63,920 nucleotides of DNA, filler included, from Halocafeteria seosinensis (GCA_001687465.1; 4 parts of 4 records of this genome joined end to end with filler, not necessarily neighbours in it); one strand, 5' to 3'; shown: positions 8,440 to 63,920, counted from the whole stretch's first letter. Program-made: numbers and translations. The notes: a model not told the origin generated them from the letters alone.

Positions 8440-8570
8440 ATGCCTTTAGAATTTGATTTGTTTTCAGGAAAACAAGGTGAAGCTCAAGACGAGAAGAAAA
8501 TTCCGGAAGAACTTCACTTCCCCTTCCGTTTTTGTATCGTGGGGAGTACCGGTTCGGGTAAGACCACGTT
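8440..8570 (+). pseudogene. N-terminal stub of an A32/FtsK-HerA-type packaging ATPase (virophage/Polinton-like virus)
   Basis: MPLEFDLFSGK...HFPFRFCIVGSTGSGKTTL. The PFR-hydrophobic-GxxGSGKT pattern is typical of these ATPases. From 8570 the DNA switches to the duplicated host segment. Confidence 0.7.
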
Positions 8571-9658
8571 GGTCGCAAAGCCACCTTGGGGTTTAAGTCT
8601 TGGAGAAACCCCACGCCTGATGCCTTGTTTCGAGGGAAGTGTGCAAAGTCCTCAGGAAAACCGTCAAAGCATTCCCAACTAGAAGCTCTCAAAACATTGA
8701 TCGGAATACGTTTTCCAGCTGAGTTCTTTTTCTCGCTTGTTGACGCAGTACATTTAGTCTTCCTGTAGCTCTGGGAAAATACATGTAGGTCCAGTTCACT
8801 ATCCAGAGAAAATGTGCTGTTGAGCACACCTTGCAGAAATACATTTTCCGCTTCTTCTAGGGGTGCTATAGTGACATGTACGGCTTGCTTGAGTGCAAGG
8901 TAGGATTTAATACTGCTTATATCCTTCTCAAACGACTTTAATTCAGTTGCATATCGTTCGTCACCCCAAATGAAGACAGCGACTACGGGAAACACGCCGG
9001 TCTCAGTATTGTTGAGCGTCGTATCTTCTATCTCCTCTAACCATCGGCAGACTTCTACTGTTGTATCATAACTGTCACCTGTATACTTTGCTGAAACAAC
9101 AATGACATCGCTTTGTTGCAAGTAACCACCCAATGTTGTGCCTATAACTCTTGGAGAGTCCATATCTCTCCACAAGAGAAGGGGTACTTGTTCAGCCTTT
9201 CCATTTTGCGCCGGTTGCGAGTGTTTGCTGTACTTGGATTCAACGTTGGTCGAGAGGGGCTGTGAAATGCGGATATCTTCCAGGGCAATTTCTGGTGGGG
9301 CATCCTTGACGCTGAGATCACGAACACTTGTGACAACTATTGAACTTTTCCGTTTTCGTTGTTTGCCTGAACTGTCGTTCACACTGGCAAACCCAACTCC
9401 AGGAAGTGATTCATACATGTAGTCTCTTGAGAAGAAATCGTTGAAGATAATTCCTTCTTCCCACATCGACTGCACGCTTACAGTGCCGTTGATGGCCGAT
9501 TCCTCCTCGTCCATCAGCAGCTGTCCCCTCCTGCCGCATTGACATAGATCCGCCCTCCAACACCTGCAGCACGAACGATGAGAGTCTTCATAGCCGGTGT
9601 ATGTGTATTCAAGCACACGCTTGCTTGATGAGGCGGAGGCCATCCTTCCGAATTGCAT
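8570..9658 (-). CDS. Unknown protein, 3'-truncated by the viral fragment
   Basis: ORF 8414-9658. The part below 8570 is read-through into the antisense strand of viral DNA. Paralog at 1320-2231. Confidence 0.45.
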
Positions 9659-10601: not shown

Positions 10602-12215
10602 GTATGGGAAGGCGTAACAGTCCACGTTGGAGTCTGTGTCTGTGTTGGTGTGTTGGTAACGGAAGGTGTAGATGTGGATGAACTGGTCATAGTGGCAGTC
10701 GGTGTTTCCGTTGCAGTCTGTGTACGCGTCTCTGTCGGTGTCGATGTCACTGACGGCGATTCTGAGGAAGAGGGAGTAGACGTTACTGAGGAAGTGGTAG
10801 ACGATGACGGTGTAGCTGTACGGGAAGGCGTAACAGTCCACGTTGGGGTCTGTGTCTGTGTTGGTGTGTTGGTAACGGAAGGTGTAGATGTGGATGAACT
10901 GGTCATAGTGGCAGTCGGTGTTTCCGTTGCAGTCTGTGTACGCGTCTCTGTCGGTGTCGATGTCACTGACGGCGATTCTGAGGAAGAGGGAGTAGACGTT
11001 ACTGAGGAAGTGGTAGACGATGACGGTGTAGCTGTACGGGAAGGTGTAGCAGTCCACGTTGGGGTCTGTGTCTGTGTTGGTGTGTTGGTAACGGAAGGTG
11101 TAGATGTGGATGAACTGGTCATAGTGGCAGTCGGTGTTGCCGTTACAGTCTGTGTACGCGTCTCTGTAGGCGTCGACGTCACTGATGGCGATTCTGAGGA
11201 AGAGGGAGTAGGCGTTACTGAGGAAGTGGTAGACGATGAAGGTGTAGCTGTATGGGAAGGCGTAACAGTCCACGTTGGAGTCTGTGTCGCTGTATGCGAA
11301 GGTGTAACAGTCCACGTTGGAGTCTGTGTCTGTGTTGGTGTGTTGGTAACGGAAGGTGTAGATGTGGATGAACTGGTCATAGTGGCAGTCGGTGTTTCCG
11401 TTGCAGTCTGTGTACGTGTCCCTGTAGGTGTCGACGTCACTGATGGCGATTTTGAGGAAGAGGGAGTAGACGTTACTGAGGAAGTGGTAGACGATGAAGG
11501 TGTAGCTGTACGGGAAGGTGTAGCAGTCCACGTTGGGGTCCGTGTCTGTGTTGGTGTGTTGGTAACGGAAGGTGTGGATGTGGATGAACTGGTCATAGTG
11601 GCAGTCGGTGTTTCCGTTGCAGTCTGTGTACGTGTCCTTGTAGGCGTCGACGTCACTGATGGCGATTTTGAGGAAGAGGGAGTAGACGTTACTGAGGAAG
11701 TGGTAGACGATGAAGGTGTAGCTGTACGGGAAGGTGTAGCAGTCCACGTTGGGGTCCGTGTCTGTGTTGGTGTGTTGGTAACGGAAGGTGTAGATGTGGA
11801 TGAACTGGTCATAGTGGCAGTCGGTGTTTCCGTTGCAGTCTGTGTACGTGTCCTTGTAGGCGTCGACGTCACTGATGGCGATTCTGAGGAAGAGGGAGTA
11901 GACGTTACTGAGGAAGTGGTAGACGATGAAGGTGTAGCTGTATGGGAAGGCGTAACAGTCCACGTTGGAGTCTGTGTCGCTGTATGCGAAGGTGTAACAG
12001 TCCACGTTGGAGTCTGTGTCTGTGTTGGTGTGTTGGTAACGGAAGGTGTAGATGTGGATGAACTGGTCATAGTGGCAGTCGGTGTTGCCGTTGCAGTCTG
12101 TGTACGTGTCCTTGTAGGTGTCGACGTCACTGATGGCGATTTTGAGGAAGAGGGAGTAGACGTTACTGAGGAAGTGGTAGACGGTGAAGGTGTAGCTGTA
12201 CGGGAAGGTGCAGCG
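10602..12215. repeat. Coding tandem repeat, 216-bp (72-aa) unit, some units with an extra 42 bp
   Basis: The same motif recurs at 10608, 10824 and 11040. Units with an added TQTPTWTVTPSHTA segment occur near 11260-11310 and 11950-12000. Confidence 0.95.
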
Positions 12216-13870
12216 GCCCACATAGTCTACATGTTGGATGTAAAAGTTCCGAAATTTGGGTACTTACGTGAACTCAGTCGGCACTCGGTATGCGTAAGTT
12301 CGAACTTTCCAGCCGGGCATTCATCGCAACGCGTAGATGCTGCCGGACTTGTATAGCCGTCTGCTCGGAGAAAACGTTTAAAAAAGAATGCATCCGATAG
12401 AAGGTTGCATAGTATGTACATATCACTAATCTTCTTATCGATCCCTACTTACCGGGGCATCCGGTACACTCGTTACTTTGCTCGTATTTTCCCGCGGGAC
12501 ATTCGGTGCAGATAGAAGAGCCAATGGAACTGGTTTCACCACCTACAGTAGGCAAAATGAAGAAGATTTGAAAGCAGCACTAAGTGACCGGAACGTCAAG
12601 ATCTTACTTGGGCAGTTATTGCAGCCGCTTTGGCCAATGCTGGCATACTCTCCGGCAGGACACTGTTCACAGCTAGTCGAACCACCAGAGCTGGTTTCAC
12701 CACCTGCAAATGTAAACAGCCTCGAACAAAAACTTTGCATGGCTCATAATTCTATTCCAGTAAGCTTGCTGGCAAGGTTCTCTTACCAGGGCATCCATTA
12801 CAATTATTATTTAGTTCGTACTTTCCGGCGGGGCATTGGGTGCAGCTAACAGAGCCAGGGAAGCTGGTTTCTCCATCTGCAAAAGAAGAAAGAGTACGCG
12901 TCCTCTCCCCTTTGGTCAGCTGTTTGAGTACTTACTCGGACAGTTATCACAACTGTTTTGATCACTGTTTTCATGCTTTCCGGCAGGACACATCTCACAG
13001 TCAGTCGAACCACTAGAGCTCGTTTGCCCACCTGAAAGTCGCGAGCAACGGAAAGGGGAAAGCTATGACCAGCACTACCAATTCTGGACCGCGATCTAGG
13101 TTTTAATCGCGATGTTGGTTCAGTACATACTTGGACAATCATTGCAATCGCTTTGGTCCTCCCTTATATATTTTCCAGCGGGACACTCCTCACAAGCTCC
13201 CATGTTCTCTGAACCGCTAGGGCTCGTTTTTCCAACTGTAATTGGGATAGCAAGTGAAGAAGAAAGTATATGCCAATTTCTCACAGCTTGCATTCTCCAT
13301 TTTGTTGCAGCACATACTGGGGCAAGTAGAGCAACCATCTTGGTTTGCCTTGGAATACGACCCAGCGGGACACTCTTGACAAGCATAAACACTATCCGAA
13401 CCACTAGAGCTTGTTTCCCCATCTGCAATGGCGACGAAGTTTAAGGCAACAGAAACTTGGATTAACCACTGCATTGTATTACATACTCGGACAACTGCTA
13501 CAGCTGCTTTGGTCCTCTGTTGAATACTGCCCGGCAGGGCATGCCTTACAGTCCTCTTCGCTGTCCGAGCCGCTTGGACTTGTCTCACCAAACTGTTTTC
13601 GAGTCACGCCAAGCAATCCATGCATGAGCCGTTGCTCACCAAGAATCGATACAGTACAATGGAACGTTCAATAGGACTTACCGGACACCCCCAGCAGTCG
13701 AAGAATGTATCGTTACCCGCAACAACCTCTTGGCAATATCCCCCTGCGGGACAGTCTTCGGTACAAGTTGCCGAGCTTTCAGTGGGCACCAAGACTCCAA
13801 GTACCAGAATGAAGACAACGGCGCAGCATGATTCCGTTCGTGTGCCGAAGCTAAACATCCATTCAAACAT
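10602..13870 (-). CDS. Secreted/surface protein with Cys-rich (GCC2/GCC3, ephrin-receptor-like) repeats and a Thr/Ser/Pro mucin-like stalk; 3' end lost in the gap
   Basis: Hydrophobic signal (AVVFILVLGVLVPTESSA). About 9 short exons such as GETSSSGSDSVYACQECPAGSYSKANQDGCSTCP, separated by GTAAG/GTATG introns. Then the T/S/P-rich ORF 10602-12223. Confidence 0.8.
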
Positions 13871-14330
13871 TTGGCGTCTCCCTTGTGAATGTTGCGTGTA
13901 TGAAAAAGGCTTACTTGGTAGTACTTGTAGCCCACAAAAACAACCTCAACAACGATATGGTGACCATGCTTGCATTGCTTGGAGACATGAAGCAGATTTC
14001 TCTTCTGACTCTATGTACATAATGCCGACCCCACATAAGTATTCACTATAAAAAATACAGATAATCAAACGACATGAATTTGACAATACAGATGCATGGA
14101 CCATAACAAAGTAACATGCATTAAGCAACAAGAATAAGTGTACAAGGCGTTCGAGGATGTTCTGGGAGAAGAAATTAAGTGTTCACGAAAGACTTGTATT
14201 GCAGATGACAGAGAAATATAACCCTATTGTCCCTCTAAAGAGGAAACCTTACGTAGGTACACTTAAAAGTATGTCCCATTGAACTGAAAGATCGTCTCCG
14301 TGGCCGTTGAACCACCGAGCAGTACAGTAC

Positions 14331-14404
14331 CTCACACGGGGAATCCGTCGGGGAGTCACTCCGAGTCACACCGAGTGTCAGTGAGTCACACGGGGAGTCA
14401 CACC
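14331..14404. repeat. Cluster of GAGTCAC motifs with about 10-bp spacing
   Basis: GAGTCAC at about 14353, 14363, 14383 and 14395, plus variants. Confidence 0.6.
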
Positions 14405-15167
14405 TACTTGGTAGTAGAGGAATAACATGGAACAATTCAGCCTTACGTCCATTGGAAACAATATGTAAGCCCTAATACAGTCTAAATGTGGGGATCGTTT
14501 ATTATTTCACTATTAAAGTCGACTATTGGCGTCTGGACACAGCAGACGTCCCCTTCTATGCAGATCATGGAACACAGCAGGACTCCAACACAGATGTCTC
14601 TAGTATACTGGAATTTACACTTATTCTCGATCTGGATCATACAGGCAAGTACCCCTATTTCTTTTTCACGACAGGAACACACCATGGCAGAGACAGTATG
14701 TGCGGCACATATCAAAGTTCCACAAGCATACAACGATTCCTGTATTGCTCTAAGACGTAATAATTTTTGCATATCAAATGGAGTCTGTGTGTACAGTACT
14801 GCAGTAATCGCGCCGAAAGATGAACAAGAGATGTCCGGACTTATCTTGGAGATACCACGTGTTTGCGAAGCGCGAATACCGAGAAGCGAAGTTAGAAATT
14901 ATAGCCCGTGTATAACTACAAAAACAGCGGTGGCTTTCTTGATTCATTCCTAGTCAGTAGCTAAAGGCATCCCTTGACGGTAGCTTCTTGAATTCATTCT
15001 TTGTGAATAGCTTCCAGGGGCATGCCGCCGTCATGCGCGATAGCAGTGGAACTGGAGAACTACATCCGCGTGAGTCAAATGCCATTTGAGAGAGAGGTGC
15101 TCGTACACCCACGAAAAGAGAGGCGAGGCCATTAATGGACCTGGTAGCAACGGGCCCAATGACCACA

Positions 15168-17169: not shown

Positions 17170-20100
17170 ATGCCAGAAGAAAGCAAACAAAATCAAGGAC
17201 GCTCGGCGTCGGTGGTTGGAGTGGTGGAGGAGGGACCTCGCATGCGAGGACTCGCACAGGTAAGCTTCCCTGAGTTCTCCCAGACGTTGAGTTGAGCCTC
17301 CAGTACACTTATGGAACCGTCTCTTCAGCTTGCGTGCGATTCGGATGATGAAGAAGGCTTGAGTGAAGATCGTTTCCTGCGGACCAGGTACATTCCACCG
17401 AGCAAAGGAGAAGCATATCAGAAGTGCAAGGAGAGCATGTTCGACGCTGGAAAAGCATCTGTATGGGGAACTACTCTAACAGAACTCTACTCCATGGGCG
17501 TCGGAATAGGCCTATATTTCCAATTGTTGTGCTATTTGTCAGTAATCATGCTGTGCTGTGCATTCATCATGACGCCGACTTTGACCATATTTGGATCGTC
17601 GAATAACTTGCCCCAAGAGGATATCGACTTTCTGTCTCTGACGAGAGTTTCCTTGGGGAACTTTGGGCATCCAGCGGAAGGAAGCCAGAACGCCACCTCT
17701 ACAATATTCATAGATGGCTTCGGTAGGGTGACTATAAAGAATGCTGCCCTGGCTGTGGGCTGGAGCGCTTTTATCGTCGCCTTATTTCTTTTGGGGTTCA
17801 TCCTGTGGTGGCGCCGGCGCATCAAACAGGCAGTTCGCTTGTTTGACATCAATAATATCACGATGAGTGACTATACTGTGTATGCTACAGGATTTCCTTG
17901 GGACGCCAATCGGGAAGAGATCAGACAACACTTCGATAATCTCTACAACTTGTGGGAAGACGATTGGACGTATGGCGGGAGTGTCAAGTACCTTTGCCTT
18001 GACCGGAAAGCAGCAAAGCGGCCTAAATTCCTCAGTCCTAGTAACGCTGCAAGAGTGAGAGAACGCGTGGAACAGCTACGGCGGAAGGGAATCATGTTAC
18101 CTTACCCCCCGGATCACTCCAATATTGCTCCGGTAGAGGATGTGAGCAACACAGATGACGATAGTTACATGAACTCGTGGGTGGCGGAGCTCTCTATTGC
18201 CCACCCAAACGGAGCGCTGATACGAAAGTATAGACAGTTGACGAAGAAATTTCGGCAGATTCGGTCGGCTCGTGGCCTCATCAAGAAGTATACGCAGGGT
18301 TTGAGTGCAGAGGCCAACCCCACGAAACGGGCAAAGGCCTTAGCACGCTTAAAGAAACTTGAGGAAGAATTGCGTCAAATTGATATCAGACATGGCTGCA
18401 AGTACAGCGAAGAGTGTGTTGGGGCGTTTGTAGTATTTAACAACGAAGAGAGTCTCAGAAGGTGCTTGTATGACTATGGAGCATCACACACTCTCTTTAC
18501 TAGATTTTTTCAGCCACCTCCATTAAGATTTACACGCAGCATCAACGGAAAAGTTCGCTCATGGAAACTGTCAGTAAGCAAAGCTCCTGAGCCGGAGGAC
18601 GTCACGTGGGAAAATCTCGAGATATCCCAGTTTAAACGAATACTTCGCCGAATCGGAGTAAACTTTATACTGTTACTCCTGATTATATTCTCCCTCTTCA
18701 TCCTTTTCTTACTGGGTTCGCAAGAGGAGGTCCTGTCCAATAACCTACCTACTGATGGATTTTGTCAAGATGACCTTCCCACTTTGGCCTTCGGGACTGA
18801 GGATATTCCCCCAGATGCTCGGTTAGTGCGTAATGAGGAATTGGGGGATCAAGTGTGTGACACAAGTGAGGCTTACATCACCTGGGAATCCTCGGAGATG
18901 GAGCCCTTAACCAACACCACTATGAACCCTTGTCTCTCGCCCTGTGTAGACCTGACGGGCGACCTTGAGTGCACCGGTCCCTCCGGGGAGACCTATCAAC
19001 ACCAGGACGTTGTAGACTGCTATTGCTCTCAAGAATTGGACCAGAAAATTGGGGAGCAAGGGATTTTTTTTGGAATAATTGAGATGACCCGCTCCCCGGA
19101 AGAGCTATGCCAAACATTTGTGAGGAAGTTCGCGTTAGCGCGTTCGATGACGGTAATAGCCGCCGCTGCTGTCGTCTTGCTGAATGTTTTGTTGAAGGAC
19201 GTCTTACGTCGCGTCACAAAGCTTGAAAGGTTTGATAGCTCCAGCCAAGAAAAGACGGCAGCTGCGGCGAAAATCTTCCTAGCTCAGTTCTTCAACACCG
19301 GTCTGGCAATATTGCTGACAAATCTCAATTTCCCTTTTGAAGAGGTGAAGCTAGGATCAGTTCGATTGCTCAGCGGTGAGTTTCGAACGCTAAATTCCGA
19401 ATGGCATGGAAGCGTAGGTGCATCCATCACGGTTACTATGCTCTTGAACATTTTTGGTCCGCACCTAGCGACTGTGTTTCGGGCATTGATTTGGAGATGT
19501 CTCCGCAGATGTGGAACTCGCCAAGCTGTTATCCAAGAAGAGATGGATGAGTTATACAGTGCGGAAAGTTTTAGCATCGAGACTAGATATCCCGTTTTAC
19601 TTAACACATTCGCTGTTACATTGTTTTACGGAGCAGGGATGCCTATCCTATTCGTCTTTGCCAGCGCATCTTTCGTAGTTTCGTATTGGGTGGACAAGTG
19701 GATGCTCCTCAAGCTGTATAAGCGACCCCCGTTTATAGACCAGTCTTTGGCTGAATTAGTGCTTAGTGTCTTCCCTTTCTCAGTCATACTGTATCTTGTG
19801 ATGGGTTTGTACATGCTCGGTGATCAGGAGAGGATTCCTGTGTTGCCGGTCAATTTTCTTGGAGGAGCGACGGGACAATATCGGGAGACGGTAGATGATG
19901 TAGACCGGTACGATTTCACCGGCTTAGCCAAACGCAGTTTGAGGGAACATACGTTTCCATTGTTTATGCTGCTTCTGGTACGTATCTGTTGAAAACTCAT
20001 ATGCGGCAAATGCAGAGTGTTCAGTTGCAATATGCCATGTTTTTAATACGCAGGTTACCGCATTGTCATTTCTAATATACTCCACTATGGGTCGAAATAT

Positions 20101-27855: not shown

Positions 27856-28758
27856 CAGAGCTGGGATATTTCCTTTTCCGCACTTTGCCCCCGATGTTTT
27901 GCGGGGGCGCACCACTGGAAAAAGCGCCCGTGCCCCCGATATTTCAAAATTTGCCAGTTTTGTGAAGGGAGAATGTGGACCCATTATTATGCATATTAAA
28001 GGGAAATTAAAAGACACCCAAGCATATCAAATTGCATTATCATCGTTAAAATTTCTTTCTGTATGGTTTTTTTGCCCTTTATCTCTGATAAGGACACAAT
28101 GGACAGCCGTGAACGTACCGAGATCGCCACTCAACCCGAGGTGGACATTCAAACTCAGGGCGATAACATACAAACTGATGAAAATATTGTTTTCCTCGAC
28201 GCATCATCCAGTACAGTATTTTATACTCTATATGTACGTACTAATGGCGTTCTACAAAATGGAAACTATATTCGCGTACGCAGGCCCGAGTGCAACAGCC
28301 GAGTCGGGGAAGAAGAAGAAGAGGGCTCGCAAACGCACGCTGCCTCTCCATGTCGAGAAGGTAAAAGAGCTGCAATTAAAATTCCCATGGATTTATGTAA
28401 ATAGACAGTCACAGGAATCCTTGTGGCGTCAAATTAAAGTCACTTGTCGACCTTGTAACGCCATTCTCAGTGCCAAAGACGACTGCGATTTAGCGAGACA
28501 CGCCAAAGGGTCTAAACACTGCAAGCTGGCTGGGGTAAGTTTGGCGTCACTGATGCAACAATGATGTCGCCAACAGTATATGAACTATAATTTACCGTAA
28601 GACATTGTTATGGTGCAGACTGATTCCCAGAAAGCCGTGGGAGAGAAGCGGACGATCAGCTCCTATTTCGAGGATGAGGACAAAGCCATATCGGCTTTGA
28701 TATCGGGTAAGCTCACTACAGCCGGACTCTGTCCGAATGTTATCGAGCGAGTTGCAAA
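27856..28758 (+). mobile_element. hAT-like DNA transposon left end with a spliced Zn-finger N-terminal exon set; truncated by the gap
   Basis: Terminus CAGAGCTGGG shared with 1-298; subterminal GCCCCCG repeats. ATG 28099 (MDSRERTE), intron, then KKKKRARKR and CRPC...HAKGSKH. No catalytic domain is visible. Confidence 0.65.
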
Positions 28759-45377: not shown

Positions 45378-47105
45378 TTATCTACCACCTTTTTGCGAGT
45401 TTTTGCTTTTTACTGACATACGGATGTCACAATAGGTCTTGAGAACATCCTCTAGTTGATGGTTAGGCAATACGGTGGCCGTCCCGTAAATACCTGCAGT
45501 GCCCTCCGCCTTGGTATTGGGATTCTGTCTAACTGTCTCAACGGCCTCCTTGAGATCTTGGATCCACTCTTCTTTAATGTTGGAGGTTGTTTCTGCAATG
45601 CATATGTGGGCTGCAGGAGGAAGCTGTAGAGGATTTACAGACCAACCTTTCTTCGTCATTTCGCTGGTAATCGTGTAGATATCTAGGGTGTCACTGGTGA
45701 AGCTGACAATGCTGGCATCACAGTCTGTGATTGTTCGAAGATCAGGAATCTTGTTAATTTCTCGACAGAGCCAAGTGTGAGTGTCATGAATGTGTCGAGC
45801 AACGTTCTGATACCCCTGTTTACCGAGGTGCATCATAGTACCCCAAGCGGCTGCCATGAGTGCTCCCGACCTCGCTCCTTGAATAGTCGATGTGACGTAG
45901 AACCCACCTGCCCAGTCTGTGATCCCATGAATTGTAGCTCTCCTGTACGCATTATCCCGGAAAACTACGAAGGATGCTCCTTTGGAAGCGAGGCCGTACT
46001 TGTGCCCGTCACATGAAATTGATGTAACGCCAGGGACCTCGAAGTCGAAGTTCCTCTCAGGCGGGAGGAGTCCAAGTTGTTTCAGCGGGGAAAGAAGAAA
46101 GCCACCAAGACAGTTATCCACATGAAGCGGGACATTATGTTTTACAGCTAGGTTTCCTAACGCGGGAATCGGATCAATGACACCGTGGGGGAAGGTTGGA
46201 GCAGAAGCAAAAATTGCTATGGTGTTCTTGGTGATATGCGGTTCAACATCCTCTGGATGAAGGCGCAAGTCGCCCTTGAGATCCACTTTCTTCAGTTTGA
46301 TGCCTAAGTAGCCACAAGATTTGTCTATGGCGGGATGAGCGGCCGCGTTACAGATGATTTCCGGTGAGTAGTTACCATACTGAGTGCGCGCGTGGTTCCG
46401 ATAACCAAGGGTCGCCAAAAGGATTGATTCCGTACCTCCAGATGTGAATAGGCCTGCACTATTTGCGTCTCCATTGAGCATAGTTTTTACCATGTGAATC
46501 ATTTCAGCTTCGAACTTGCGCACAGCCGGAAACACTCCAGGATAAAGTGCATTGGTGCAATTGTAGGTCGCCAGCAACTCGTTTTGAAGATTGGTAAGAA
46601 TTCCACCTGTATCCGCGGCCGCCAACTATATAACCAATAATACGATATGTGCTGCAATGTCGATAAACATACCATCTGCATGATAGATCCCGCCGAATTT
46701 CTTGCCCTGGTTTTCCCCGTCATCTCGTTCCTTGAGTTCTTTGGCTTTACCAAGCACTTCGGAATACGGTATTCCCGTGTCCGGAAGTTCAAAGTTCGCT
46801 TCAGGATCACCTTCACCCAGTAAATCTTGCTCAAGTTGATCGAAAGTTTTCTGTTCCTCGGCTTCCACCACTCCTCGTAATCCAGGAACTGCTTTGGCTC
46901 CCGCAATTAAACTTCCCACAGTGCTCTTCACAATTTGTCGTGGACCCATTCGGTACAATTTATACGTCGCTCCGCCCACCACCAGCAATGCGAGGGCGTG
47001 TTCGACCTGCCGGGCGGCGATCGAATCGGGGGGACAGCCTAAATGCCTGAGAATTCTGGAAAAGGAAGCGTAAGACTGGTTGGGTAACCCACTGGAGGAC
47101 GACAT
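45378..47105 (-). CDS. SGPL1: Sphingosine-1-phosphate lyase, copy 1 (two exons)
   Basis: N-terminal TM; TSGGTESI, FPHGVIDPI, HVDNCLGGF, SISCDGHKYG. Confidence 0.9.
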
Positions 47106-47322
47106 TGTTACGTATTTTGGGTGTCACTGCCGTCGGGAAGCAAACCACAGGACTAAAAGTAGGACTTTAAACAAACTGGAAATTTCAAGGAATATCTGCA
47201 CAATGCTGAGATGTAGTAAATTGTATAATTACATGTGTATACCAAGGTGGCGGCTAAATAACTTAGCCGCCGTACTCCAAGGCTGCTTCAGTGAACCTTG
47301 AACTTGTTGATGGTGGTACCAG

Positions 47323-49078
47323 TTAAGAGTTCTTGGCCTTCACTTTAACCCGAATGTCACAATACGTCTTCAGGACATCTTCAAGCTGGCTGTTCGGTAA
47401 TACAGCTGCAGTGCCATAAATACCGGCGGTGCCCTCTGCTTTTACATCGGGATTTTGCCGAACTGTTTCAACGCAATTCTTAAGATCCCGAATCCAATCA
47501 TCCTTGATATTCGTAGTGGTTTCCCCTATACAGATATGCGCCGCAGGTGGAAGTTGCAACGCAGTTACACTCCAACCCTTCTTGGTCATTTCGCTGGCGA
47601 TTCTGTAGATATCTAGCGTGTCACTGGTGAAACTAACGATACTCGCATCGCAATCGGTGATTGTTCGAAGATCAGGAATCTTATTGATCTCGTTGACGAA
47701 CCATTTGTGAGTATCCTGCATGTGAACAGCAACGTTTTGGTATCCTTCTTTACCGAGATGCATCATGGTAGCCCAGGCTGCAGCCATAACAGCCCCCGAC
47801 CTAGATCCTTGTACGGTCGACGTAACATAGAAACCTCCGGCCCAATTAGTTATTCCATGAATTGTAGCCCTGCGGTACACATTGTCTCGAAACAGCACGA
47901 ACGATGCACCTTTTGTCGCTAAGCCGTATTTGTGTCCGTCACAGGAAATTGAAGTCACTCCCGGCACCTCGAAATCGAAGTTCTTTTCTGGTGGTATAAG
48001 ACCCAGTTCTTTGAGGGGTGAAAGAAGGAAACCTCCCAGGCAGTTATCCACATGCAGAGGCACTTTATACTTCAAGGCTAATTGGCCCAAGGCAGGAATT
48101 GGGTCGATCACGCCGTGAGGGAATGTCGGAGCGGATGAATATATGGCAATGGTGTTCCTGTTGATGTACGGTTCTACTTCCTCGGGATGAAGCCTCATAT
48201 CACCTTTAAGATCCAATTTCACTACTTTCACGTCCAAATAGCCACATGCCTTATCCAAGGCTGGGTGGGCGGCAGCGTTGCATATGATTTCCGGAGTAAA
48301 GTTCCCATACTGAGTGCGGGCGTAATTCCGGTATGCAAGAACCGCCAGGAAAATGGACTCGGTCCCTCCAGAAGTATATAGCCCCACACTGTCAGCATTC
48401 CCATGTAACATAGTCTTCACCATGGTAATCATTTCGGCCTCAAACTTCCGAATAGCCGGGAATACTCCAGGATAGAGGGCATTGGTGCAGTTGTACATTG
48501 CAAGCAACTCATTTTGGAGCCGAGTCAGGATCCCACCTGCGTGAACAACGAGTGCAACCATTGAAAACGCTGCTAAGAAGAAAAGGAAAAACAAGAAGAT
48601 GATATCTGAGTTTACATACCATCCACGTGATAGATTCCTCCCCATTTCTTGCCCCCATTGTTGTCATCGTCTCGCTCCTTCAGTTCCTTCGCTTTTTTGA
48701 TCAATTCATCATAGGAGACACCTTTTATCGGGAGCTCAAAGTTGGCATCAGGATCTCCATCTCCCAGGAGATCCTGCTCCAATTCATCAAAGGTTTTCTG
48801 CTCTTCGGCCTCGACAACATTTTTAAGCCCCGGAACCACTTTGGCCACTCCAATCACACTTCCTACGACGCTCTTCACAAAGTTTCGAGGGCCACTGGCG
48901 CCCATTTTGTACAGCTTGTACGATGCTCCTCCCAGAGCTAAGAGCACATAAATATGCTCTAAACGTCTGATTGTGGTAGAATCAGGAGGAGACGCTAGAC
49001 ACTGCAAAGAGCTCCATAATGAGCAAACCCCTGTCGGCAGACGCTCCCAATTTCCCGTGGAAGTAGAGGGTTCCAGCA
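47323..49078 (-). CDS. SGPL1: Sphingosine-1-phosphate lyase, copy 2 (two exons)
   Basis: Same motifs and same intron position (after GGIYHxD) as copy 1. Confidence 0.9.
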
Positions 49079-50419
49079 TATTTGCTACCTCTCTCTCTCT
49101 CTCTCCAAGAGACCAACAGGCGTTCACAAACTGTAGCTTGAATTGAATAAATGAGAAGCAACAAAACCTCTGGGGGATGCGAAATACAAATATTTAAGGG
49201 TATTATGGCGGCTATTCTCTGTAGCCGCACCGCCTGTTGCCCCGAGGGACACGGACACGGGAAAAAGAGTTCAAGAAGGGAATCTAACCAAAAATGGCAT
49301 TTACATAGTTTTTCGTACTCGTTAACTGAGAATGTGATTGCTAGTTCCACGTTGGCGAAGGAAGGGCAACACAGAGTGATTTGACGTAAAATTCCACCTG
49401 AATTGGAATTCCAGTTCATCCCAGACCAGAAACAGCAGAACGATAAGTCGACATACCGTCGGACAGGCAAGGATTGAGCTATCACTGTGCTGTCTGCGAT
49501 TATCAAAAATGTTTATTTAGATGGGCTGCTGGTTTCGCCTAGGTGTCGGTGAAAGAAGCCACTGAGTACCCGGATGTCAGCGAACCCCCGTACTCACTGG
49601 AATGGGAACGTCTAGCTGCTCTTGATCACCACGAGGACCACAAACTGCGATGAGCATGACCCCTACCAACAGCAGTATCCATCCCAAAGTGATCGAAGAT
49701 GATCTATGCTTTGGGGCTAGTGCCATGGTAATTAATTGGGCTGTTAGCTTTACGGTAAACACAAGTTGGTTATGCTGCACTGGACGGGTATAGCCTACGT
49801 CTCACAACAAATCTTACGCTAGGATAAATACAAATACATACGCTTTATTCTGATATGTACTTCACGCACACAGTTCACGTGACAAGAATATATCACGTGC
49901 GTGTGCGGTGTGTCGGATGTTCAGACAGAAGCAGCTCCATCAGCGTACCGTAGCGTCTCTTGCTATAAACATGTAGCTTGGACAGCGAATCGTCCCCATT
50001 CCGCAAGTTGGCATGGTCCATCAAGATGACCTGCTGCTATCGTTTTCGGTCTTTCGCGCAAGTCCCAACTGTTCAGATTGTCACTTGTGAAGCTGCACCC
50101 GCGCGCCAAATCGTAGACACCACCATAATGTACGCATGAGTTGTTAGCTGATGTAAGCAGTGCCTTGTAGTAAGCTCAGATATTAATTGGATATCCTCAA
50201 ACAAATACCTGTACTTGAAAGTGCAAGAGTCTGAATGAATAGATCCTGGACGAAGTTGGAATTCAAAGAATAACGCGCGCGCAAACCCATTTTACCTCCC
50301 CGGCTCTATTGCACGCGATAGGCGCTGTACCATAGGATTAGGCACCCTGTCCGGCTAGTCTAAACACAGGGAAACAAGTGAGCTTGGAGTTGATCGAAAG
50401 TGTTATCGTCTAGGAGGAG

Positions 50420-55916: not shown

Positions 55917-58900
55917 TCATTGTTTCGGAGACGATGCATTCTTTTTCCAGGGCCTTCCCGTTCTGTTCCTGCGTCGCCCCCAAATATTTTTATCTGGCCG
56001 AAATTTTCTGGCGGCTCTAGCTGCACTAGCTACTGGGGAGTTGGGCCGCATCACTTGGTCTGCTGGTAGTTCCGCCATCTGAACCTTCTGCTTCGGTTCT
56101 TCTGGCGGATCCACACGCATTTGTTTAAATTCCACCTTACTGTTGTTCGTTAGCCTTCTAGTTCTTTGAGAGTTATCATCACAAGGTGTTCGGAGTCCCC
56201 CTTCACTGGCAATGCTTGGTAGCTGCTCGTGTTGCTTCGATTCTTCGTCATGTGGAAGATCACGTCCATTTCTTGTTCTGTCGCTCGATTCGGATACATT
56301 GATTCGAATTATCGGAGGCGGCTCTGCAAGCACTGACGCTCTCCATTGAAGCAATTTCAATGCAGCCCGGTGGCTAGTACTTAGTTGAGAGCTAACAATT
56401 TCGTTGGTGTTGGTGATTGTTGAATCCTCTGTACCACCCGAAGGACTTCTCAGTGAGACAATTCTCCAAGCATTGGGGTGGCTCTCCACGCTCCTGTCAA
56501 ATTCAACGAATGTGAGTGGTTCGACCGAGCCTGACCGTGCCGACATGCTTTCAGCGTCCGTGGGAGGAGGGGCCAGAGGGTTGATGCCACGCACTGGGTT
56601 TATACTATCCCGCTCACTGCGTTCAGTACCGGGACTGAGTAACATTCCCCGATGCTCCAGTCTGCAGTCTCTGTTGTCCGGATTCGCGACTAGCCTCATT
56701 ACTTTGATAGGTCTCCCCAACTTTTCCGCATATATCTGCTTAATGTCATCTGCTCGGGCAGAGTTACTGCGGTTATACCGTCTCCTAACGAAAACAAACA
56801 CCAACATCACAATCAAAGCCAGAAGCAGTATGCCGGGGACACCAGCAGAAACTGCCATCCTGCCTATTTCTTGGTTTGCATGACCCGCCGGATTTGGCTG
56901 GCAGGATGCATCAGTATCAGTGGCACTAGTTCCGCTTCTGCAAGAGATGCACCGTGTTTGTGATCCGTCGGGAACCGCACCTTGCCCACACGAGTAACAT
57001 ACTGAATCATTTGATCGTGATACTTCGTACGGAGCGCAGGAGATACAAGCCGACCGCTGACTGTTGGGGATGCTACCACTACTGCACAAACTGCATTCTG
57101 CATCAATATTGCTAGCGACTTCGTACTCGGAACAGTTGAAGCAGCTATCTTGGGTCGCCGAAGGAACGTAGCCGTCACCGCATGTTTGGCATTCTGAATG
57201 TCTCTCCGTTGCAAACTGATGTGGTTCACATTCATGGCACTCACTCTGATGTGAATTCGGCACGACTCCTTTGCCACAGGAAGTGCAGATAGCGTCTTCC
57301 TTACCGGAAATTCGATTTGGTGCGCACTGGCGGCACGATGCTGCAGATTCATCAGGGACCACTCCGACACCACACCTGTAACATGCAGCATCAGTTCCTG
57401 CAGCCACCTCAAATCTCCTGCAAGATACGCACTCTGCTTGATGAGTATCTGGAACAAAACCAGGCTGGCACGTTTTACAAAATGCATCCTTAGCTGATGC
57501 CACTTCGAAGTCGAGACAGTGCTCACATCCATCCTTGTTCAAGTTAGGAACCTTGCCATCACCACAGAGACTACACCCGATGGCACCACTTTCGGAAAAC
57601 AAATGAGACGGGCAATCCTCACAAACACCAGTGGAAGCGTTAGCAAATTGACCTTTGCCACACTCGTAGCACACAGGCTCCAGCGGCCCAGAACCACTAT
57701 TTTGAGGGCACGTCTCGCACTCTCCTCGATCTTTGCTGGGGACCCTACCAGCTCCACAAGACCGACAGATCGTATCCGTGACAGTCGCGATATAATTCCC
57801 AAAACACTGTACACAAGCACTGCGATCCCCGTTTGGAACGCTACCCAGTCCGCAAGCACGGCACTGCTCATCCCCTACAGCCGCATATTCCCAGGCACTA
57901 CAATTTTGACAATAGTCTTTGGTAGAAGACGGAATTGTTCCAACTCCACAATCATGACATTCAGCATCCGTTGATCCGGCCATCTGAGACTCCGCACAAG
58001 ACATACACTCTCCTTGATTGGAGGTTGGCACCATGCCTTTCTCGCATACTCGACAGGTTTCATCGTTTCGACCAGCAACTTTGTAATCAAGACATGCCTC
58101 GCATCCATTTCGTGTAGCATTGGGAATCATTCCAGGACCGCAACGGTAACAAATGTCGTCTTGATCTCCAGCATACATGTTATCCGTACACGATTTACAC
58201 CCAGCTTGATCTCCATTGGGTACTTTCCCGGGACCACACATCTGACAAACACTGTCCGTCGAGGAGGCCACGAGGTGCGGAGGGCAAGTAGTACATTCGC
58301 TCTGCTCATCATTGGGAACTTTACCCTCGCCGCAGGCATGACATTCAGCATCGTCTTGAGTTGCGTATTCCCAGTTGCTACATGTTTGGCATTCACCGCT
58401 CCAGGGACCGGGAACCTGCCCAGGGTCGCACGTGGAACAGCCTTCATCGTCCTCCGCAGCTACCTGATTCTTTGAACAAGTTCGGCAACTACCTTGGGTC
58501 TCTGTAGGAACCCTCCCACGTCCGCATGACCGGCACATATAGTCAGTCGTATGTGCAATTTGATGCACTTCGCAAAGCTCGCAGTCGCTTTTGACATTGT
58601 TCGGCACCTTCCCTATACCACAGCTGTGGCATTCGTCGTCGCCTTCAGTGGCATATTCCCAGGCACTACAATTTTGACAATAGGCTTTGGTAGAAGACGG
58701 AATTGTTCCAACTCCACAATCGTGACATTCAGCATCCGTTGATTCGGCGATCTGAGACTCCGCACAAGACATACACTCTCCTTGATTGGAGGTTGGCACC
58801 ATGCCTTTCTCGCATACTCGACAGGTTTCATCGTTTCGACCAGCAACTTTGTAATCAAGACATGCCTCGCATCCGTTTCGCGTAGCATTGGGAATCATTC

Positions 58901-59200
58901 CAGGACCGCAACGGTAACAAATGTCGTCTTGATCTCCAGCATACATGTTATCCGTACACGATTTACACCCAGCTTGATCTCCATTGGGTACTTTCCCGGG
59001 ACCACACATCTGACAAACACTGTCCGTCGAGGAGGCCACGAGGTGCGGAGGGCAAGAGGTGCATTCGCTCTGCTCATCATTGGGAACTTTACCCTCGCCG
59101 CAGGCATGACATTCTTTATCTTGTTCAGTAGCAAACTCCGACGCACTACAATTTTGACAATAGTCTTTGGTAGAAGACGGAATTGTTCCAACTCCACAAT
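55917..59200 (-). CDS. Cys-rich repeat type I membrane protein; 5' end lost in the gap
   Basis: Dozens of CxxC..G.VP....C units, a TM helix (VPGILLLALIVMLVFVFV-RRR) and a cytoplasmic tail. Internal near-exact duplication at 768-bp offset (identical ORFs 57935-58117 and 58703-58885). Confidence 0.88.
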
Positions 59201-59300: not shown

Positions 59301-59657
59301 CAGCAAGACGGCGATGGTAATGTCGTAACAGGTAGTGGAAGAGGACACCAGAACGTTCAAAATATGGTAAATTTAATTAAACAGGCTAAGAAGAAGAGAC
59401 GAGCAGGTGGAGCTAAAAATCCTTTTAAAGAAATTAAGAAAGGAATAGACTTTTTCAAGAAGCTAGGAAAGAAAGGTAATACTAAGAATAATGTAGGTAA
59501 AGACCATTTTGACGACGAAACCATTGATGGTTTATTGCTAGCTACACCCGAGGAGAAGCGAAAACTTAAGAAACAACAACAAAAGAGAAAAAAGAAAGGT
59601 AAAGGAGGACAGAAGAAACAAGTAGCCCAAGAGAAACTAAAAAAAAAGCTTAGATAA
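59301..59657 (+). CDS. Lys-rich viral core-like protein, 5'-truncated
   Basis: Frame open from the contig start (QQDGDGNVVTGSGRGH...). Very basic, with Gly motifs VTGSG, RAGG and GKGG. Confidence 0.6.
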   Translation, partial: QQDGDGNVVTGSGRGHQNVQNMVNLIKQAKKKRRAGGAKNPFKEIKKGIDFFKKLGKKGNTKNNVGKDHFDDETIDGLLLATPEEKRKLKKQQQKRKKKGKGGQKKQVAQEKLKKKLR

Positions 59658-59842: not shown

Positions 59843-60397
59843 ATGAAGATAGACAAGGCTGAAATAAATAGGTTGATGAACATAGCACTGAGTGAATCTC
59901 AGTTACAGGAATATACCCCTCATAAAGTACCAATAATTAGTTACAATCAGATTTATGATAAGACGATTCCTGCGTGGTTAAAGCCAGAGAAAGCATTGAT
60001 AATGTTATATTTACAAGAAGCAAGCGTGGGGCATTGGACGTGCTTAATAGAGCATCCAGACACATTTGAATATTTTGATAGTTACGGACACGCACCCGAC
60101 GAACCATTGACTTGGAATTCAGAAGCTAAGAATATTCAGCTAGGGCAACCTTCACCTTATATATTGGATAGCATCCCTACATTATCTAAACCATTGATTT
60201 ATAATGACAAAGTACTTCAATTGAAGAAGAATTGTAGTCAGACCTGCGGTAGGTACGTTTTACTGCGGGTAGTATTAAAAGACTTGACACTGGAGGAGTT
60301 CATTAACTATTTAAAGTATGTAAGAGACGAATATGACCTGAAGAACTTTGATAGAACAGTGAGCTTTTTAACAAGTGAACTTGACGAACAACAATGA
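59843..60397 (+). CDS. Viral maturation cysteine protease (adenain/Ulp1 clan CE, virophage type)
   Basis: LYLQ...GHWTCL (His), EYFDSYG (Asp), LQ...TCGRY (Gln, Cys); 184 aa, intact. Confidence 0.9.
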   Translation: MKIDKAEINRLMNIALSESQLQEYTPHKVPIISYNQIYDKTIPAWLKPEKALIMLYLQEASVGHWTCLIEHPDTFEYFDSYGHAPDEPLTWNSEAKNIQLGQPSPYILDSIPTLSKPLIYNDKVLQLKKNCSQTCGRYVLLRVVLKDLTLEEFINYLKYVRDEYDLKNFDRTVSFLTSELDEQQ

Positions 60398-60678
60398 ACT
60401 TTGAGAAGCTAAGGGATAAAATTAAATTAATTTGTCCCTTTACTACATAACTAGGATTTCTACCCTTCTTACGCAGGAGGGGGACAGGGACAAAAAATTT
60501 AGATATTTGTATACATATTTACATAATATATATACACTCTTTTTTAGTTTTTGTATATATGAAAGAGATATATTTTTTTGTCTTTTTTGTCCTTTTTGTC
60601 CCCAACTAGGGTTTATATCGCAATTACATAGGAGGGCAGAAATTTATTTTTCTGCCCTCAATCATTATTTTCAGCCCC
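60381..60678. repeat. About 300-bp diverged direct repeat, copy 1 (origin-like, with hairpin)
   Basis: Colinear with 62739-63029. GGGACA/TGTCCC-type motifs flank a TA-rich core. Hairpin GAGGGCAGAAA-n6-TTTCTGCCCTC at 60632-60659. Confidence 0.85.
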
Positions 60679-60714
60679 AATAAATATAATGAAGAAGAAA
60701 CTAAGTGTATTAGT

Positions 60715-61961
60715 TTACTTAGGGTTTCGTCCAGTATTTCTACTACTTCCAGAAGCACTTGTTGGTTGTTCAGGTGTACTTAGACCTACAGCAGAGGCAC
60801 TCTTCGTTCTTTCTGAATTAAGTTTCTGAAGTACTTCTCTGATACAACTTGCTTTTCCCTCAAAGGTGGGCATATCAATAAGGTCTTTCCGAATGCTTTC
60901 AATAATATTAATCTGCGGATAAGAGCGCATGTCGCAGTTGCTAACAAGGGAGTGTGGCATGCGGAACATACCTCCGTTTTGAAATTTTCATCAATGGAGT
61001 CTTCACTCTCGCTCAAAATAAAACCGGACAGACAGTTAATGTTGTTAATGTTATCCTCAAATCGTCTAACGTTAAACAACTGCTCCACAGGCGTTACAAT
61101 CTCTGAAGAGATTGTAATATACTTACCGGCACACTCCAGCCATTTTCGTTCATCTTCGCCAAGTACTTTATCACCCGCGTGCTCAATCGCTTTGTTCAGT
61201 AATTTTTCAACATCGCTCTCATCTTCACCAACTTCAGTGCTTTCACCACCACCGCTATCATCAATATGTTCACCAAGTTCAGCACCTTTACCATCATCAA
61301 TATCTTCACCAAATTCAGCTTCATTACCACCACCAATATCTTCACCAAATTCAGCTTCATTACCACCACAGTTCTTGACTTTCTCAATATCTTCAATACT
61401 CTTGATGCGTTTGCTGAGCAAAGCAATATGACCAAACGATTTTTCGTATTCATCCACGTAGATTTCTGCTTCTAACGCTTGATTTTCCTTGCGTTTTTTT
61501 GACTTCTCCCAACTTCTCCGTTGTTTTTTGTCCTCCGGGGGATTGTTCAAATCGTCTCTCAAGGAACAATAACGTCTTTTCTTGTTAATGTAATCAGTTG
61601 TGCTCTGCTTTAACTGGGAAAGACCGCCCAAAAAGACGCACAGTGCGTCCGGAGAAACAAGTATGTTGGGAGGCACAGCACCTACCAAAAGCTTATGAAC
61701 ATCGTGGCTTGTAACCCCCTTGTTATTCATAGCAAGTACCCTTTTTAGCTTTGAGACTTGGAAGTTAAACTCCAATCTCTTCTTGAGAACGCTTTTTTTG
61801 GCGTTGTTTCTCAACAACGTGGGTAAGTCACACTCATTGGTAGTGGCTTCAACAATCTGCCGGTCTTGAAGGTACTTAGCTTCATCAACGTCTTTACGAG
61901 CTAGTTTGATTGAAGCGCGAAACTCTTCATCCTCCCCTTCATCAATGTTTCTCTTAGTCAT
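60715..61961 (-). CDS. Unknown acidic protein with 12-aa repeats and one predicted spliceosomal intron (60913-60971)
   Basis: ATG 61961 (MTKRNID). GTATGT...CCGCAG, 59 nt, joins ENFKTE to INIIESIRK in the frame of ORF 60715-60969. GGNEAEFGEDI repeats. Confidence 0.7.
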
Positions 61962-61968
61962 TTCTTCT

Positions 61969-62065
61969 TCCCGCACCGAACCCAAGAACAAGAACAAATA
62001 GGAGTTCTCTGGAACAAATGTTTTCCCGCACAGAACAAGAACAAATAGGGGTTCTTTGGAACAAA
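61969..62065. repeat. Tandem duplication of about 45-55 bp upstream of the 61961 gene
   Basis: TTCCCGCAC..AGAACAAGAACAAATAGGRGTTCTYTGGAACAAA occurs twice. Confidence 0.8.
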
Positions 62066-62738
62066 AGGCTTTCAGCGATACTTACGATAGAACCAAACCA
62101 CAATTACAATGAAACCACAGTACAGTTAGACCCCCAATGTAAATCCCCAGTTAAATTAGTGAAGAAAAATGAAGGAAACACGTTTTTTGCTTTGGCTTTC
62201 TCAAGGACCGGAGTTTAGGCCGATATTATCAATCCCAAATTATTGAACCAACTACTTTTTTTCTATAGGAAACCAGCTCTTTGAGCAGTTTAACCGCCCA
62301 TACCACCCGAAAACTGTCTAAAAACCGTCACTTATCTCCGTTCAACCCGAATATACACGATACAAAAGTCTCTCTACAACCAAACAAATAACATAACGAG
62401 CTTACCCACTTCATTTTAGCAAGGTTCCGACAAGTCCGACCTCAAAACTCGCTTTATAAAGACACCAACGGGGCATCTAGACTTCAACAGAGCCTCAACG
62501 ACTTAACCACCCCAATATACACTATGAAGGGAACCATATATTACCCTATAACTTACCATACTGCTAGAATATCATATGGACGATAACATACTGAAAAAGG
62601 AGGGCTGTAGATGCTGTAATTAATGAGGTATGAGTATCAACCTGTTTTGAAGCTCCTTTGGAGCCGATGGGGCACACAGTAGGGACACAGGAGACGATAT
62701 ATAGCAAGTTTGAGGAGTGAGCTTTTCAAAGAGGGAGA

Positions 62739-63029
62739 TTGACGAACAATGAACTTTGAAGAAACTAGGGGATAGAATTAAATTAGTTTGCCCTTTCCTA
62801 CATAGTAGGGATTTTTACCCTTCTTATATAGGGAGGGGCAAGGGCAGAAAAAATCAATATTTATATATATATAAAAACATAGTAAGCATATACTCTCTTT
62901 TAGTTTGTATATATATAATGTAAATTTTTTTGTCCCTTTTATCCCTTTTATCCCTAAATAGGGTTTATACCGCAATTACATAGGAGGGCAGAAAATTATT
63001 TTCTGCCCTTTAAATTATATTTTAGCCCC
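62739..63029. repeat. About 300-bp diverged direct repeat, copy 2
   Basis: Starts TTGACGAACAATGAACTTTGA like copy 1, has the same motif order, and keeps the hairpin AGGGCAGAAAA-tta-TTTTCTGCCCT. Confidence 0.85.
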
Positions 63030-63295
63030 GAAAGCCATTATACACCAACGAGAGAGCGACAACTGAGGGGAGGGGATTAATCTTTTGATGGTCACCGAAG
63101 AAGAGCACGACAATTTAGCGATGAATTACATTGAAAATTACACCTACAATTTAGCGATGAATTTAATAAAAATTACACTGAAAATTACACCTATAATTTA
63201 ACTTATAGCCGGCATTTTTTATTATTTTTTATTAAATAAATCCGGCATTTTATATTAAAATCCGGCATAAATTATTATATGCTGGTTAAAATGCC

Positions 63296-63345
63296 CTATC
63301 ACCCGCCAACGTGAAATCAATTGATTTCACGTTGGCGGGTGATAG
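63296..63345. repeat. Perfect 50-bp palindrome
   Basis: CTATCACCCGCCAACGTGAAATCAA|TTGATTTCACGTTGGCGGGTGATAG, with no spacer and no mismatch. Confidence 0.97.
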
Positions 63346-63920
63346 ACGAACTCGGATATCTGGTATGGCGGGTAATACTCGGAGAGGTATGTTGGCACGC
63401 CAAACCCGCTCTGTTGTTGTGCATAATGTTTCTGTCCTGCAGAAAGATAGTTACTACACTTTTTCAAAAGTTGGAATCAAGCGTAGTTTGATGTGCTATG
63501 AACAGCTACAAATCCCTATAGTGAAGGCGAAGCGCAGTATCAATTTTGCATCACTATGAAGGTATAGCCAGCAAATCTTAGAATGCGACTGCCTTTCTGG
63601 GTCCTCATCCCGGCTACGTGGCAAAGTTAGACTGGGGAGCGGTCAATGGGAGAACGCCATCCCTGCGAGGTTAAAGTGTCCGAAGTAGGGCTTAGAGTAC
63701 GTATCGGGGAGGTACAACAGCCGATAGCACATCGTACTGGCACTGTGTGAAAGCCTTCTTTCACTCTTGCACCGGAACGACAGGTAGTAGAGAATAGGAA
63801 CATCTCAATACCCCTTAGACGATGCGTCGTATGTCCACTGCTTTCACATGTGAGTCATTACATACCTAACGGGCATATTACACAACTCTGCGTTCTTGTG
63901 CGACGCTCCCTGTGTATAGA

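Follow-up and report, generated by a model that had tools for sequence, protein, structure and literature searches.

The window, i.e. the whole stretch of 63,920 nucleotides of Halocafeteria seosinensis DNA (GCA_001687465.1) analysed here, is made up of four contigs with N/linker spacers between them. Contigs one to three are eukaryotic DNA with introns and 47% GC, and the last one, beginning at 59301, has 36% GC at its start and carries in order a protease gene, a host-like insert, the tail of an integrase, a 50-bp terminal palindrome and a host gene. At the start of this contig, which falls inside the element, on its viral side, lies a basic, Lys-rich ORF (59301-59657, plus strand, 5' end open) for which a Pfam search gave no match. 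It is followed by the gene of a 184-aa virophage-type cysteine (maturation) protease (59843-60397, plus strand) with GHW, YFDSYG and CGR motifs, the protease type expected of Maveriviricetes. The protease has 3138 relatives at E<=0.001, and virophage capsid (MCP), penton and ATPase genes accompany the best 80 viral relatives, the closest of the proteases fetched with their loci being only 27-39% identical to it. When the protease was used as sole query, no viral locus and no phage record was matched, and two metagenome scans returned 0 and 2 distant loci.

The insert (60698-62664, minus strand) has a GC content of 41% and contains an orphan gene (61997-60715, minus strand) with a predicted 59-nt GT-AG intron (60971-60913) that is read through; no homologue of this gene was found by Pfam and other sequence searches. 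Downstream of the insert, the C-terminal 19 codons of a truncated virophage-type tyrosine recombinase (62665-62722, plus strand) retain an MGH..T..Y motif, which agrees with the C-termini of 20 proteins from the first 80 loci, 10 of which were aligned. A perfect 50-bp palindrome (63296-63345) marks the element end, where GC steps from 33% to 47.5%, and the host DNA beyond it (63346-63920, plus strand) contains a GT-AG intron (63387-63442). A terminal palindrome is thus found at the host boundary, as in endogenous virophages. As the contig has a virophage-type protease at one end and the palindrome with a GC step to host DNA at the other, it represents one end of a virophage integrated in the host genome; virophages are small viruses parasitic on giant viruses.

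The endogenous virophages of a halophilic protist described in the accessible part of a recent preprint (bioRxiv 10.64898/2026.07.28.741278) resemble this fragment in being low-GC virophage DNA in a higher-GC host, in the palindrome of about 50 nt at the element end and in their nested, decaying copies. The present element is probably decaying too, because its integrase is truncated and a host-like insert separates the two repeats described below, and both of these repeats may therefore no longer work. No primase-helicase gene occurs in the last contig (59301 onward).

Two copies of one module with opposed iterons

The repeats are a single module of about 320 bp present twice in diverged form; the two copies are in direct orientation and share 78.4% identity over 324 nt, spacers included (BLAST E 5e-66). 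Both follow a stop codon, that of the protease in copy 1 and that of the integrase in copy 2. Copy 1 (60358-60681, plus strand) begins within the last 12 protease codons and has an outer inverted motif pair forming an imperfect hairpin right after the protease stop (60411-60441), two forward GGGACA iterons at 60481 and 60487 (60481-60492, plus strand), a core of about 86% AT (60493-60575), three 9-bp reverse units of which the first is degenerate (60576-60602, minus strand) and a palindrome with 11-bp arms and a 6-bp spacer (60632-60659). Copy 2 (62716-63031, plus strand) opens with a 36-nt vestige of a protease 3' end. Its forward iterons (62835-62851, plus strand; GGGGCA/AGGGCA at 62835-62846) are degenerate relative to its own reverse units, three 9-bp repeats of TTTTRTCCC (62928-62954, minus strand), and between the two lies a 76-bp core of 86% AT (62852-62927); a palindrome with 10-bp arms and a 5-bp spacer follows at 62984-63010. 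Core length is thus 76-83 bp across both copies. The outer motifs are two inverted pairs on the left side and the 10-11-bp-arm palindrome on the right side of each copy, and the palindrome arms of copy 1 bear a GGG-CAGAAA word that is also found in the inner forward motif of copy 2.

The original prediction of opposed motifs around an AT-rich core of about 80 bp in both copies was therefore correct as described (60481-60602 and 62835-62954), and the arrangement exceeds chance by the BLAST score as well as by a motif-agnostic detector (detector 1, below), whose only 2 matches in the 63,920-base window, at settings re-tuned after a first version had missed both copies and hence chosen with the window known, were these two, against 0 in a same-orientation control. 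Three points had been absent from it, namely that copy 2 lies inside a candidate terminal inverted repeat (TIR), that the element is integrated, disrupted and adjoins host DNA, and that the contig lacks a primase-helicase gene. Its further claim that motif order is kept while the spacers diverge fails in the pairwise comparison it had proposed as a check. In the copy-to-copy alignment, iterons are kept no better than spacers, with 35 of 45 iteron columns and 189 of 242 other columns identical (Fisher p=1), and on adding the palindrome arms the counts become 56/67 and 168/220 (p=0.24). An Rfam search gave one sub-threshold match only, and scans for sigma-70 promoters and terminators stayed at chance level.

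Copies of the module in related assemblies

Parts of the stretch occur in four runs of one study (X1-X4), which are mutually non-independent. In one X1 contig, 29 other letters replace 60405-60697 between the protease and the insert; a form without copy 1 therefore exists, and copy 1 is dispensable or secondary at that site. X1 is also without cover over 60533-60686, which by itself proves nothing. An X1 contig shares the junction of insert and integrase tail seen in the window, contigs of X1, X2 and X4 run upstream into other sequence at 62665, and another X1 integrase tail passes into different sequence at 62718. Depth in X1 steps through about 260, 540, 1100-1900 and 3000-4000, values that are hints only and not copy numbers. 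A GT-AG intron is missing from the contigs of X2-X4, which may therefore come from RNA; they stop at 62847-62852, but a contig cannot reveal an RNA end.

Over copy 2, X1 contains at least four minor variants that are 80-95% alike. Here the expected contrast between motifs and spacers did appear, spacer and loop sites being variable at 16/35 and motifs plus arms at 7/47 (p=0.003), in a post hoc tally among the variant sites listed, from an alignment with gaps; the motif conservation claimed originally is thus seen among these variants and not between the two copies. The CCC triplets of the reverse units vary at 0/9 sites and the palindrome arms at 1/20, and the palindrome spacer is 5-6 bp long while its arms stay. 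Different flanking sequence is attached at 62827 (left) and at 63009 (right), two points that bracket the unit of iterons, core and palindrome. At 62707 there is a junction with a second inner flank, a hint which, with the terminal palindrome and the GC step, suggests a candidate TIR of about 640 bp (62707-63345, 33% GC) holding copy 2. Copy 2 thus probably lies in a TIR whose opposite element end is outside the window.

The layout in other virophages

The original prediction had called for a search of related virophages and for co-occurrence with a primase-helicase. With the protease, the integrase and two alignments of primase-helicases as queries we fetched 261 loci, whose genes were labelled by profile HMMs and which were grouped into 175 lineage clusters. 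Detector 1 accepts any 5-mer with at least two exact copies per side of an AT core. It found the layout in 17/179 virophage loci (12/120 lineage clusters) and in 0 of 10 shuffles, and in 1/34 unassigned loci. None of the 48 giant-virus-like loci matched, and these are a weak control because their non-coding DNA amounts to no more than 45 kb, whereas the virophages have 235 kb. The same-orientation control of this detector matched 9/179 virophage loci (5/120 clusters); in three of these five clusters the control had picked up outer repeats belonging to the modules already found, and in the other two the matches sit 169-257 bp upstream of a helicase. Detector 2, a stricter exact-word version that finds only copy 1 in the window, matched 15/142 cluster representatives (virophage or unassigned, giant-virus-like excluded) compared with 0-1 in 20 shuffles.

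The layout is thus present in other virophages, in other words than those of the window. The words vary by lineage (GGTAG, GGAGG, TCAGG, GGTCG, GGACC, GACGG, GGAAC and others), and the G-rich strand faces inward in 19/21 modules, as it does in the window. The median core of 70 bp and the period of 9 in 20/42 arrays from other virophages also agree with the window. A second copy, of 149-488 bp and 81-90% identity, was found in 5/15 lineages. In one locus (L206) a module follows the integrase stop by 15 bp and a second, truncated module follows the protease stop by about 50 bp, as in the window, and another locus (L184) has one module on each side of its helicase gene. The words of the window itself gave 0 matches in IMG/VR when exact DNA patterns from the module were searched, and 0/263 in the loci. 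The layout was likewise absent from the loci of both metagenome scans and from 35 later loci; a helicase gene was present in just 3 of the latter, in each case with less than 200 bp of sequence upstream of it. This comparative pattern across other virophages is stronger evidence than the two copies of the window.

Association with the primase-helicase gene

The module lies within 300 bp of a primase-helicase gene in 12/13 representatives holding both, whereas the proportion of non-coding DNA would lead one to expect 5.2 (P=5e-5), where many loci had been fetched centred on the helicase gene; 4 of the 13 cases are one lineage, and counting it once gives 9/10. Across all representatives, the layout occurs in 13/75 with a helicase in the fetched stretch and in 2/67 without one (p=0.006), so that no layout was detected in 62/75 of the helicase-bearing representatives. 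Judged by their Pfam domains (PriCT_2, D5_N, DUF5906), the genes next to the modules encode D5-like primase-helicases. In four related loci (L161, L162, L163 and L165) the helicases are 55-78% identical and the words differ by 0-2 letters. Most of the helicase-adjacent modules (10/12) are upstream of the gene, 133-272 bp before its start; modules downstream of it were seen in L037, in L238 and in the second copy of L184.

One helicase, that of L184, was folded. The last 200 aa of the model, built on a 39-sequence alignment, have a pLDDT of 88, match the C-terminus of the ASFV PrimPol and also match the winged helix of RFX (1dp7), with a TMt of 0.68, an rmsd of 2.5 and an E of 0.016. The L184 helicase is accordingly predicted to have a C-terminal winged helix.

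A replication origin among the possible readings

Since the same layout adjoins the primase-helicase gene in other virophages, the module is a likely site at which DNA copying starts in these viruses. We consider it probable that the module is a replication origin of the type known from staphylococcal SaPI islands, read by the virus's own D5-like primase-helicase. Of the two lines on which the original prediction of an origin can be judged, the comparison with other virophages supports it and the motif-conservation test between the two copies does not.

A much less likely explanation is that the module comprises transcription signals, the hairpins being giant-virus-type terminators or poly(A) signals and the iteron arrays a promoter or operator, e.g. 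for helicase autoregulation. The stop codon preceding each copy, the better folding of both copies than of shuffles (z -6.0 and -3.0) and the varying palindrome spacer between unchanged arms in X1 are in line with this, and host-virus terminator hairpins and late promoters are used by virophage genes according to the accessible text of PMC7031253. The upstream position of 10/12 helicase-adjacent modules fits an operator or promoter as well as an origin. However, such signals would not account for a fixed AT core of 70 bp flanked by 9-bp arrays that face each other, modules also occur downstream of the helicase, and the five other gene classes show no enrichment of modules within 300 bp (integrase 1/11, protease 1/11, MCP 0/7, penton 1/5 and ATPase 1/10). 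For the flanking hairpins the transcriptional reading may hold alongside the origin.

Somewhat less likely still is a structural signal of the TIR, i.e. a protein site for end processing, hairpin-primed replication or packaging, in which case the duplication would represent two TIR pieces of related nested elements. The perfect terminal palindrome at the GC step lies 265 bp from the end of copy 2, X1 has the junction with a second inner flank at 62707, and palindromes of this kind, nesting and decay are known for endogenous virophages from the accessible part of the preprint (bioRxiv 10.64898/2026.07.28.741278). In the IMG/VR virophages, however, the module has an internal position and the duplication mostly extends no further than the module itself (149-298 bp in 4/5), and the module tracks the helicase gene and not the ATPase gene. 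Derivation of the duplication from two TIR pieces would in itself be compatible with an origin.

Function as an attachment site of the tyrosine recombinase, with arm-type repeats around the AT core or with the palindrome as a dif/loxP-like core, appears very unlikely. It would suit the integrase tail preceding copy 2 and the 11-6-11 geometry of the copy 1 palindrome, and inverted repeats of polinton-like viruses (PLVs) have been proposed as both attachment site and origin (PMC11296320, in its accessible part). An attachment core of this kind would have a fixed 6-8-bp spacer and lie by the integrase gene at the target junction, whereas the spacers here are 6 and 5 bp in the two copies and variable among the X1 variants. 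A recombinase core would not tolerate a varying spacer length. Moreover, the module is near the integrase in only 1/11 lineages (1.4 expected), none of the 7 loose ends listed out of 12 in X1 falls in the AT core, different sequence follows another X1 integrase tail at 62718, and the host junction is 300-400 bp away.

It is highly improbable that the module is a MITE (a small non-autonomous transposon) or that it was duplicated neutrally and owes its low-complexity repeats to chance. Copy 1 is present in the window and absent from an X1 contig, and the divergence is uniform, with the copies 78% identical throughout. However, the 293-bp difference has no terminal inverted repeat or target duplication and leaves 29 letters instead of a clean absence, the duplicate includes a protease tail, and other virophages show the layout far more often than shuffled sequences do. 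A reading as telomere repeats was rejected, the G-rich strand being A-rich here and not T-rich; telomere repeats are expected to have a T-rich G-strand.

Comparison with known systems

Under the origin reading, and by analogy with SaPIs (PMC9371898, in its accessible part), the helicase would bind the 9-bp iterons through its C-terminal winged-helix domains, and two helicase hexamers would load facing each other on either side of the core. The AT core of 70-85 bp would then melt and forks would start there. Copy 2 would be the one retained in the TIR, with copy 1 as an additional copy that is internal or older, and the flanking hairpins may well be transcription terminators, which is compatible with an origin.

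According to the same source (PMC9371898), a SaPI origin has at least two penta- or hexanucleotide iterons per side, opposed, with an AT-rich middle, and both copies in the window have two forward and three reverse units in this arrangement. SaPI origins contain 6-12 iterons, and 7 (copy 1) and 8 (copy 2) matches were counted here with a loose pattern that was itself chosen from the sequence. The SaPI origin lies directly downstream of the rep (helicase) gene, in contrast to the mostly 130-270 bp upstream position (10/12) in other virophages, and its cognate helicase has a C-terminal winged helix, a domain predicted here for the one virophage helicase that was folded, that of L184. Membership in the SaPIs or other phage-inducible bacterial islands (PICIs) does not apply to the element, the flanks of which are intron-bearing eukaryotic DNA and virophage genes. 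Unlike the SaPI origin, the module belongs to a satellite virus infecting eukaryotes, is often duplicated, lies in the window within a probable TIR and is known here from sequence alone.

The gene sets of the endogenous virophages in bioRxiv 10.64898/2026.07.28.741278 include, in the accessible part, a tyrosine recombinase and a D5 primase-helicase, and their TIRs have terminal palindromes, from which hairpin priming is proposed. The terms 'iteron', 'origin of replication' and 'AT-rich' do not occur in the main text of that preprint, and its supplementary promoter-motif table could overlap with the words of the module. In PMC11296320, PLV inverted repeats by the primase-helicase and tyrosine recombinase genes are hypothesized to be origin and integration substrate. 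The accessible part of that paper concerns whole inverted repeats of insect-virus-associated PLVs, with no iteron/AT-core anatomy, and names both helicase and recombinase as neighbours, whereas the present counts favour the helicase over the recombinase.

More tentatively, and with a probability somewhat below even, virophages with D5-like primase-helicases in general may replicate from an iteron origin of SaPI-like, self-loading type, its words specific to the lineage, its polarity fixed and its copy number commonly 2-3, which in integrated forms is built into the TIR beside the hairpin end. Each end of the excised genome would in that case have its own helicase-loading site.

These considerations bear on how, within a giant-virus factory, replication begins in virophages that have no protein-primed polymerase. 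In the literature searched, most subscription papers lying outside it, no iteron origin is described for any virophage, and the replication origin site of a virophage has not yet been mapped there. With a defined site of 100-150 bp and a specific binding domain to examine, the question can be put to the test. If true, an iteron origin would explain replication-module swaps between virophages, in which word and winged helix must move together, would serve as a marker for element ends and incompatibility groups, and would extend a design of bacterial satellites to eukaryotic viruses.

In the satellite phage P4, ori1 and crr are both bound by the alpha primase-helicase through its winged-helix origin-binding domain. 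Two separate cis sites served by one primase-helicase would, by analogy, resemble the duplicated modules, but the two P4 sites differ in layout, whereas both copies in the window carry the full opposed layout.

Boundary between the virophage and the host

The boundary between the viral element and the host DNA in the window is marked by a perfect, loopless palindrome of 50 bp (63296-63345). As the contigs assembled from X2, X3 and X4, three sequencing runs of one study, carry this palindrome with different left flanks, whose loose ends fall at 63288 and 63295, it is present at several places. In the AT-rich stretch between the second copy of the candidate origin module and the palindrome (63110-63290), the word CCGGCAT occurs three times and there are two direct repeats of 30 bp; a 56-nt piece of this stretch was also found in another contig of X2-X4. 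Just past the palindrome, at 63346-63385, a repeated 7-bp word encloses a 20-bp stretch, and TGGCGGGT is common to this stretch and the palindrome. In one form seen in X1, the remaining run of the study, a different host sequence runs directly into 63377. The arrangement at 63346-63385 is possibly a target duplication or an end rearrangement.

The viral element also encloses a host-style orphan gene (60715-61997, minus strand) with a predicted intron of 59 nt. A paralogue of this gene exists, since an X1 contig matches 60796-60969 and diverges beyond.

Module layouts in other virophage loci

In the compared loci L081 and L032, the region of about 370 bp located 5' of the primase-helicase gene is a near-perfect palindrome over its full length with the AT core at its centre (7515-7880 in L032 coordinates). 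At 11695-14659, locus L184 carries its primase-helicase gene with inverted module copies on either side, adjoined by a GIY-YIG gene and the integrase gene, and the whole looks like a swappable replication cassette. The single virophage of L247 has two modules with words unlike each other (11278-11405 and 18452-18618); no helicase gene was found in its fetched stretch.

Host genes and repeats

Elsewhere in the window, a tandem pair of host genes that are 73% alike (45378-49127, minus strand) is probably sphingosine-1-phosphate-lyase-like, judging by their motifs. A large host membrane protein with Cys-rich repeats of 48-aa period (55917-59200, minus strand) is interrupted by the contig end. A direct repeat of 600 bp (1320-1919 and 8570-9159, 7.24 kb apart) and an inverted match of 298 bp between contigs (1-298 and 27856-28153) are possibly ends of host mobile elements.
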